Shown here piece by piece: positions 45,863 to 46,119 of a stretch of DNA of 64,000 nt (its first letter is position 1; every line of letters starts with the position of its first letter). The DNA comes from Escherichia phage vB_EcoM_I14.1. Where the stretch lies: the sequence record PP892526.1, one strand, 5' to 3'. Made by a program: the position numbers and the translations under genes. The notes beneath the pieces were generated by a model. The model was not told the origin of the DNA. It saw only the letters and a program-made list of their open reading frames with translations, and searched no databases.

Positions 45863-45920
45863 ACTTTAGTTGATTGTTAAGTTGTTTGTAAAGAACCCTC
45901 AACAGAAGACTCTTTAGAAA

Positions 45921-46100
45921 CTTGGTAGATTTTTAACGTGGCTACTACCATCCACCCAGACTTTACCATACCTCACCAGACCATACCTCACCTGGCCGCG
46001 CCTTGCCTTGCCAAACATCACTTAAAAACCCTTTTAAAAGACTCTTAAGTGATGCTGGTGAGTACCCGTTGGTTTATGCTGCTCAGTATACTCACCAAAT
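45921..46100 (-). repeat. fifth copy of the composite unit (GGTNN tract + palindrome + hairpin)
   Basis: GGCTACTACCATCC start matches 44271; palindrome ATCACTTAA..TTAAGTGAT 46007-46033; hairpin GGTGAGTA..TACTCACC. Confidence 0.75.
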
Positions 46101-46119
46101 TTTCTATGTCAACAACTTT

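Follow-up and report, generated by a model that had tools for sequence, protein, structure and literature searches.

Repeat units flanking a two-gene cassette in a Felix O1-like Escherichia phage very probably form an unannotated type II VIPR locus of the SUSP1 clade

The locus described here lies within a 64-kb stretch of phage DNA, referred to as the window, to which coordinates pertain unless stated otherwise. The 2-kb region around the repeat unit flagged by an earlier sequence-only reading is 100% identical to that of Escherichia phage vB_EcoM_D4 (PP886228; here D4), a Felix O1-like myovirus, and is matched at 80-99% identity by more than 200 related phage records. The taxonomy of the D4 record ends at Caudoviricetes, while its close relatives are assigned to Ounavirinae, genus Felixounavirus. 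All genes between 41 and 51 kb of the window are carried by the minus strand, and the locus is neighboured by the DNA ligase gene and by small hypothetical genes. In PP886228 the region is annotated only as hypothetical proteins, together with a 34-aa hypothetical CDS placed atop the flagged repeat tract (45914-46018 in the window, 45918-46022 in the record), an annotation that is almost certainly wrong; in some related records, parts of the tracts are labelled only as 'repeat_region'.

A scan of the whole 64 kb for CC every 5 nt in at least seven of ten consecutive pentamers located period-5 tracts at five places only, every one on the plus strand (44271-44370, 44423-44482, 44555-44634, 44687-44771 and 45946-46030), and none on the opposite strand. 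In register, these tracts consist of 11-14 CCNNA pentamers, which read on the gene strand as YNNGG (a pyrimidine, two free bases and GG), with a hairpin before and a short conserved structured tail after each tract. One unit is located upstream of two minus-strand genes and four are located downstream; the units are designated here vrRNA1 to vrRNA5, and the genes vipr and vap1, after the system to which they are assigned below. The sequence-only reading had reported a fifth copy of a composite unit sharing a palindrome with the others, and all of its quoted elements are in place, i.e. GGCTACTACCATCC at 45940-45953, GGCTACTGCCATCC at 44270-44283, and the palindrome CATCACTTAA...TTAAGTGATG at 46016-54 (vrRNA1 unit) and 44356-94 (vrRNA5 unit). 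A variant of this palindrome with one base changed was found at 44625-63 (vrRNA3 unit), whereas the vrRNA2 and vrRNA4 units possess a leader that is related to, but different from, that of the other three. The two ORFs (44817-45257 and 45260-45862) separate the single copy from the four-unit array, so that the reported bracketing of two genes by homologous units was likewise confirmed. Tandem Repeats Finder indicated other short repeats at 462-530, 936-974, 2725-2783 and 37203-37279, which are unrelated in sequence to these units. A CRISPR-Cas locus was considered and rejected, as there are no repeats apart from the period-5 tracts with their flanks, no Pfam cas domain was detected in neighbouring genes and a single gene encoding a RAMP protein stands alone.

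In the direction of transcription, the locus, all features of which are on the minus strand, commences directly after the ligase stop codon with a sigma-70-type promoter, TTGACA-N16-TATACT (46085-46112; 11/12 consensus match), which is presumed from its sequence and position to drive vrRNA1 and vipr. The flagged unit, vrRNA1 (45924-46054), comprises a hairpin leader (46054-46016), 12 YNNGG repeats (46015-45956; NN = TT AA AA GC CA GA AT CT GA AT AA CT) and an end-of-array tail (45955-45924; GTGGATGGTAGTAGCCACGTTAAAAATCTACC). It is followed by vipr, the ORF of which encodes 200 aa from a GTG start (45260-45862) or 195 aa from the annotated ATG at 45847 (45260-45847), and by the 146-aa accessory gene vap1 (44817-45257). 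An intrinsic terminator-like hairpin, AGCCTCTTCGGAGGCT with a T run, is located after vap1 (44790-44805). The downstream array opens with vrRNA2 (44662-44789), which consists of a leader (44789-44752), 11 repeats (44751-44697; NN = AC GC TA AA CT AG AG GA TT AA GC) and a pseudoknot tail (44696-44662). The corresponding elements of vrRNA3 (44530-44663) are a hairpin leader (44663-44625), 12 repeats (44624-44565) and a pseudoknot tail (44564-44530), and those of vrRNA4 (44393-44529) a leader (44529-44493), 13 repeats (44492-44428) and a pseudoknot tail (44427-44393); the vrRNA4 tract is degenerate, with 5 of its 13 pentamers deviating from YNNGG. The last unit, vrRNA5 (44254-44394), contains a hairpin leader (44394-44356), 14 repeats (44355-44286) and an end-of-array tail (44285-44254; AAGGATGGCAGTAGCCTTATAAAAAATCTGCC). 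Beyond it lies an inverted repeat with a T run (44206-44253) which overlaps a promoter-like site, TTGACA-N17-TATTTT (44234-44206), of the next gene (127 aa); judged by sequence, the former would close the array and the latter would serve the 127-aa gene. An HTH_3 (Cro/CI-type) transcriptional regulator gene (43272-43601, minus strand) is located three genes downstream of the array.

The five units, with 12, 11, 12, 13 and 14 repeats from vrRNA1 to vrRNA5, are not equivalent. An end-of-array tail, GG(T/C)AGTAGCC...CT(A/G)CC, is shared by vrRNA1 and vrRNA5, each of which is the last unit of its own array in the direction of transcription, while vrRNA2, vrRNA3 and vrRNA4 share an internal tail, GTAGTTA..CTAC. 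To describe the repeats and their structured flanks, 89 units (74 unique tracts, 890 pentamers) were collected from 25 related sources. Across the 890 pentamers, position 1 was a pyrimidine in 99.9%, position 4 was G in 82% and position 5 was G in 98%, while positions 2 and 3 were near random (0.09 and 0.11 bits, respectively); most tracts contained 9-17 repeats.

The internal tail folds as a pseudoknot composed of a 4-bp helix 1 (GTAG/CTAC) and a 7-bp helix 2, in which 100% of cells are paired. Three pairs exhibit compensatory changes, a covariation score reached by none of 500 shuffles, and the pseudoknot outscores every shifted register. The end-of-array tail forms a different hairpin with one compensatory pair, visible within the locus itself as GGCAG/CTGCC in vrRNA5 and GGTAG/CTACC in vrRNA1. 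The leader palindrome folds as an 18-bp hairpin (96.7% paired) with four invariant G.U pairs; these would be C.A mismatches on the other strand, which supports an RNA transcribed from the minus strand. The hairpin may act as a spacer or a processing element that is absent from the mature RNA. A search of 44100-46200 against all Rfam families at a permissive threshold returned chance-level matches only, and the Felix O1 genome paper describes other repeats, with the present units not among them.

The extreme strand asymmetry of these G-rich, C-free tracts, their location in a replication gene module and the capacity of (GGNNN)n to form two-tetrad quadruplexes are compatible with a G-quadruplex or R-loop element, for example an origin by the ligase and polymerase genes, or with a C-rich Rho loading site. 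Yet nothing points to such an element in particular: a quadruplex does not require the pyrimidine that follows GG, which is 99.9% conserved, and the tracts co-occur with vipr in unrelated phages of differing GC content. Felix O1-like phages replicate without most of the array, and C-rich RNA is not expected here since all genes are on the minus strand. This explanation therefore appears to have a negligible probability.

The profile search suggested by the sequence-only reading for the two proteins proved uninformative at the level of sequence, as Pfam returned no domain in either and PHROGs gave only families without known function; it was a fold search that identified the larger one. The model of this protein (pLDDT 95.5, from a 43-sequence alignment) matched, using Foldseek against the PDB, Csm3/Cas7 subunits of type III and type VII CRISPR effectors, and its invariant C-terminal glycines and arginine fit the glycine-rich loop of RAMP proteins. 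On the basis of this model, Vipr has a RAMP fold, and the gene product is a minimal (Cas7-like) RAMP protein predicted to bind the vrRNA repeats. The Vap1 model was of medium confidence, and its best matches, which were weak, were to winged-helix DNA-binding domains. A word-based homologue search with Vap1 alone yielded three matches, and its homologues were consequently gathered with a profile built from positional orthologues.

When viral contigs were searched with the 200-aa protein, matches were obtained at 18 Felix O1-like loci and at six further, distant loci, the latter with 37-40% identity and a GC content of 49-57%. Five of the six distant loci carry period-5 GG tracts (GGCNN or GGTNN) on the gene strand, no more than ~1.2 kb from the gene, and a second gene of ~150 aa always follows the vipr homologue in these loci. 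The tracts and the gene pair thus travel together across deep divergence, which points to the protein as the partner of the tract. Up to ~19 GGCNN/GGTNN repeats per tract were observed in the distant loci (L023, L024, L026 3931-5523 and L027 3870-5333; GC 49-57%), with a tract upstream of vipr in L023, L026 and L027, between vipr and vap in L023-L027, and after vap in L023, L026 and L027. Most distant tracts end in GG, a T run and a ribosome-binding site right before the next start codon, with the exception of L024, and L022 encodes vipr and vap with no tract at the threshold used.

The combination of features observed in D4 corresponds to the Viral Interference Programmable Repeat (VIPR), a phage-encoded, CRISPR-like system of RNA-guided DNA binding reported in two unreviewed 2026 preprints from one laboratory (bioRxiv 10.64898/2026.04.26.720920, 10.64898/2026.04.26.720927). 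VIPR loci encode a minimal RAMP protein, Vipr, along with vrRNAs in which 9-16 YNNGG repeats precede a structured 3' tail, and they include the accessory gene vap; in the reference locus, that of phage SUSP1, intergenic units give rise to vrRNAs of ~100 nt that co-purify with Vipr (10.64898/2026.04.26.720920, 10.64898/2026.04.26.720927). Cryo-EM of the SUSP1 complex showed a right-handed filament with one Vipr protomer per repeat, in which GGY is buried in the protein, held by H17, R138, D177, W178, R179, E71, M72 and C173, and the two NN bases are exposed (10.64898/2026.04.26.720920, 10.64898/2026.04.26.720927). The NN bases pair with double-stranded DNA, every third target base being skipped, and binding, which is reprogrammable, represses transcription, an effect enhanced by Vap1; the natural targets of SUSP1 converge on an E. 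coli satellite phage (10.64898/2026.04.26.720920, 10.64898/2026.04.26.720927).

In D4, as in VIPR loci, an upstream vrRNA, a downstream array and the vipr-vap pair were found without a CRISPR array or other cas genes. The vap gene adjoins vipr, as type II VIPR requires (the type II vap product being a predicted DNA binder), the tracts follow the vrRNA pattern of YNNGG with conserved GGY and hypervariable NN, and the tail pseudoknot is present as in the SUSP1 clade. D4 Vipr is identical to SUSP1 Vipr at 191 of 195 positions (98%), above the >90% Vipr identity by which the SUSP1 clade is delimited (10.64898/2026.04.26.720920, 10.64898/2026.04.26.720927), which makes D4 a member of this clade, for which 13 loci are reported there, and Vap1 is identical at 145 of 146 (99%). 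On this sequence evidence, the two genes described as unknown by the sequence-only reading are vipr and vap1 as in the SUSP1 VIPR. The RNA-contact residues H17, E71, M72, R138, C173, D177, W178 and R179 are all kept in D4 Vipr; at residue 175, for which the structural preprint names T175 as a contact, both the D4 and the SUSP1 translations have V175. It is therefore very probable that 44254-46112 (minus strand) constitutes a type II VIPR locus of the SUSP1 clade and that the flagged unit is its first guide-RNA gene, vrRNA1.

The correspondence with SUSP1 extends beyond the proteins. Both loci are situated between the DNA ligase gene and the 127-aa gene, both vrRNA1 tracts have 12 repeats, and the promoters and end-of-array tails are identical, with pseudoknot tails and leader hairpins, to which neither preprint assigns a role, nearly identical; over the stretch that runs from the promoter to the vipr start codon, little but the NN bases of the 12 repeats distinguishes the two phages. 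The gene pair of SUSP1 is preceded by one unit and followed by three, compared with four in the downstream array of D4, and SUSP1 has ~180 extra nt between the ligase gene and the promoter. All five NN codes of D4 differ from those of SUSP1, and consequently the target sites differ, while the targeted E. coli satellite island is the same. SUSP1 belongs to Suspvirus, whereas D4 is assigned to the genus Felixounavirus. By analogy with SUSP1, the D4 vrRNAs would be expressed, loaded into Vipr and able to repress their targets. The repeat arrangement of D4 is thus real but already explained by the 2026 preprints, D4 being an unannotated, near-identical member of the characterised SUSP1 clade, and the finding as such is already known.

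The layout of the tracts, a triplet with a 2-nt spacer repeated 11-14 times, also resembles that of a cis-acting leader or attenuator, in which a ring or filament protein would bind triplets in the mRNA and control neighbouring genes, one of the functions proposed in the sequence-only reading. In the trp leader of Bacillus, the ring protein TRAP binds 11 (G/U)AG triplets separated by spacers of 2-3 nt, and there, as in VIPR, some dozen copies of a triplet, set apart by 2-nt spacers, are recognised by an oligomeric protein. TRAP differs in having an unrelated fold and in forming a closed ring rather than a filament, whereas the VIPR spacers carry information and the RNA acts in trans on DNA. 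The promoter and hairpin upstream, and the distant tracts that end in GGTTTTTT and a ribosome-binding site before vipr, vap or the next gene, are in keeping with leaders. Against this, the adjacent protein is a RAMP and not a TRAP protein, the hypervariable spacer bases carry target information, the four tandem units that follow vap1 do not lead into four genes, and the SUSP1 units give discrete RNAs of ~100 nt. A cis-acting leader is thus extremely unlikely as the function of the tracts, although some cis autoregulation may occur, and the units, which are near-identical to those of the SUSP1 VIPR, are read as guide-RNA genes and not as per-gene leaders or cassette borders.

A homologue of SUSP1 protein YP_009199407 is encoded by the targeted satellite (10.64898/2026.04.26.720920, 10.64898/2026.04.26.720927), and of 5,426 complete E. 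coli genomes searched by blastn with the corresponding gene, 474 contain a chromosomal gene for a 'phage baseplate protein'. This gene marks an island of ~11 kb, which extends from about -8 kb to +3 kb relative to it, encodes tape-measure and baseplate proteins as well as a large serine recombinase, and is inserted at no fewer than four different sites (yciI/tonB, lafU/dinB, a split DUF72 gene and ymdF/wrbA). Seven such satellite loci from E. coli chromosomes (L033-L039), located via the baseplate gene, were subjected to mismatch-tolerant target scanning with 69 usable unique guides from related phages at a cut-off of 80% NN identity. With a 1-nt skip, 48 of the 69 unique guides reached at least 80% NN match, compared with 2 of 69 with skips of 0, 2 or 3, and 83 of 84 matches, on both strands, fell inside the ~11-kb island and not in the flanking chromosome. 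The island is accordingly the target of most Felix O1-like vrRNAs in this set of 69 guides and seven loci, and the 1-nt skip rule was reproduced independently of the preprints.

Four of the five D4 guides match the island under the skip rule, three of them in the large serine recombinase gene. The best targets of vrRNA1 (22/24; L037 14452-14486), vrRNA3 (22/24; L038 14977-15011) and vrRNA5 (23/28; L036 14180-14220) are located in this gene, and that of vrRNA2 (20/22; L034 9561-9592) is intergenic, while shuffled guides attained maxima of 17-21. According to the gene coordinates, the skipped base at all three recombinase-gene targets is codon position 3 (wobble). The predicted vrRNA1 target site is TTCAATAAAGCTCAAGAGATTCTTGATAAGAATCG, and across five recombinase alleles with differences at the skipped wobble bases, this guide scores 22/24 throughout, the two mismatches being unchanged. 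The degenerate vrRNA4 had no target of at least 80% in the seven satellite loci, and it may therefore be a decaying guide or a guide with another target. None of the D4 guides had a perfect (24/24) target in the scans, exact skip-rule pattern scans of IMG/VR with the vrRNA1 core (22 specified bases) and the vrRNA5 core (24) returned nothing, and no self-target of at least 80% was present in the 64-kb window, the best self matches being 0.62-0.73. Taken at face value, these matches suggest that D4 would silence a satellite that parasitises Felix O1-like phages.

The satellite in L037 possesses its own 14-repeat vrRNA-like unit (5057-5126 of that locus, minus strand) with the tail GTGGATTGTCGTAGCCACGTTAAAAATCGAC, the stem of which, GTCG/CGAC, is compensatory with respect to the phage GTAG/CTAC. 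No vipr or vap1 homologue was detected in the seven satellite loci. A vrRNA-like unit without vipr agrees with the remark that some satellites encode vrRNAs (10.64898/2026.04.26.720920, 10.64898/2026.04.26.720927).

VIPR differs from Class 1 CRISPR-Cas filaments (Cas7, Csm3 or Cmr4 on crRNA) in its period, 5 rather than 6 nt, and in its read-out, with three bases hidden and two read per unit instead of one flipped and five read. Its guide is itself a tandem repeat, with no CRISPR array, cas1/cas2 or other cas genes, and double-stranded DNA targets are reported to be repressed rather than cleaved. VIPR has been put forward as an ancestor-like relative of CRISPR effectors, the guide RNAs of which recognise double-stranded DNA through a new, gapped code. 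For the Felix O1-like phages, which are widely used for typing and biocontrol, the assignment means that two 'hypothetical proteins' and ~900 bp of intergenic DNA lacking annotation, present in more than 100 sequenced phages, become a defined anti-satellite system. The additions made here, i.e. the reproduction of the skip rule, the predicted D4 targets in the serine recombinase gene and the presence/absence polymorphism with orphan guides described below, are modest but testable.

The comparison with related genomes called for by the sequence-only reading showed that about half of the matching Felix O1-like records are devoid of both genes: of 259 phage records matching the region from the ligase gene to the 127-aa gene, 117 (~45%) encode a Vipr of at least 90% identity and the rest do not. 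The eight vipr-less loci examined (L029-L031 and L040-L044), that of the type phage Felix O1 among them, all keep one or two orphan units, and in all eight these begin like the upstream unit, with its promoter and leader, and finish like the last downstream unit, with its tail. In Felix O1 (AF320576; L029 585-866), the 282 bp between the flanking genes consist of the vrRNA1 promoter, the leader, one tract and the last-unit tail. SUSP1 likewise has the promoter-bearing stretch, as does each of the seven vipr-less loci in which it was scored. Such orphan units are what a deletion between the flanking homologous units would be expected to leave, and, given their homology, the flanking vrRNA units may recombine with each other and so delete vipr-vap1. 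The first orphan tract of UAB_Phi87 is NN-identical at 21 of 22 positions to the first upstream guide of one vipr-positive phage and the second at 17 of 22 to the last downstream guide of another; these matches (0.95 and 0.77) exceed the shuffled maximum of 0.72, with the other orphan tracts at background. Canonical pentamers amount to 74% in vipr-less orphan units (n=88) and 80% in vipr-positive loci (n=846), samples that are small and between which no difference is claimed. The deletion signature at vipr-less loci is not mentioned in either VIPR preprint.

These observations bear on whether the units chiefly serve recombination or delimit a mobile cassette, moving or deleting the two genes, with no RNA function of their own. 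The PeSL of T4-type phages, repeated units of a promoter and a stem-loop, reportedly lie on either side of small gene cassettes, and genes may be reshuffled or lost when these units recombine. Such a role is in line with a cassette present in ~45% of the matching records, with chimeric units at all eight vipr-less loci, and with a unit copy number that varies in related loci from 1 to 3 upstream and from 1 to ~4 downstream. Similarity alone, however, leaves unexplained the strict GGY and near-random NN, the covarying RNA structures, the NN match to the satellite under one spacing only and the co-purification with Vipr reported for SUSP1. The PeSL and VIPR units have no sequence relationship, and the PeSL repeats are regulatory signals whereas the VIPR repeats are guide-RNA genes with recombination as a by-product. 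A function chiefly as recombination substrates is accordingly very improbable, and recombination is better regarded as incidental to the repetition of guide genes. For the reasons given above, a T4 PeSL-like cassette was dropped as the primary function, as were a quadruplex/R-loop origin, a Rho site and a TRAP-like attenuator. Of the arrangements envisaged by the sequence-only reading, a repeat-flanked cassette is right as to geometry, which is conserved in SUSP1, but not as to the function of the units as borders; a recombination product gains comparative support from the chimeric units kept by the eight vipr-less loci, whether through loss or through gain of the cassette. Repeats unrelated to gene boundaries, which that reading had named as evidence against its interpretation, do occur, as orphan units without the genes in vipr-less phages and in the E. 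coli satellite.

A more speculative and rather unlikely scenario, which is nonetheless worth considering, is that the vipr-vap1 cassette has been repeatedly lost and perhaps regained, and that the orphan guides, which keep promoter, leader and tail, would be loaded in trans on the Vipr of a co-infecting relative or would act as decoys that sequester the Vipr of a competitor. Trans loading by a phage is likened here to the satellite's own orphan vrRNA, which must use Vipr in trans; neither a trans-loading nor a decoy role for orphan units appears in either preprint. The presence/absence polymorphism with orphan guides bears on the gain, loss and possible sharing of the system between co-infecting phages, and the orphan guide of phage humlepung still matches the satellite at 19/22.
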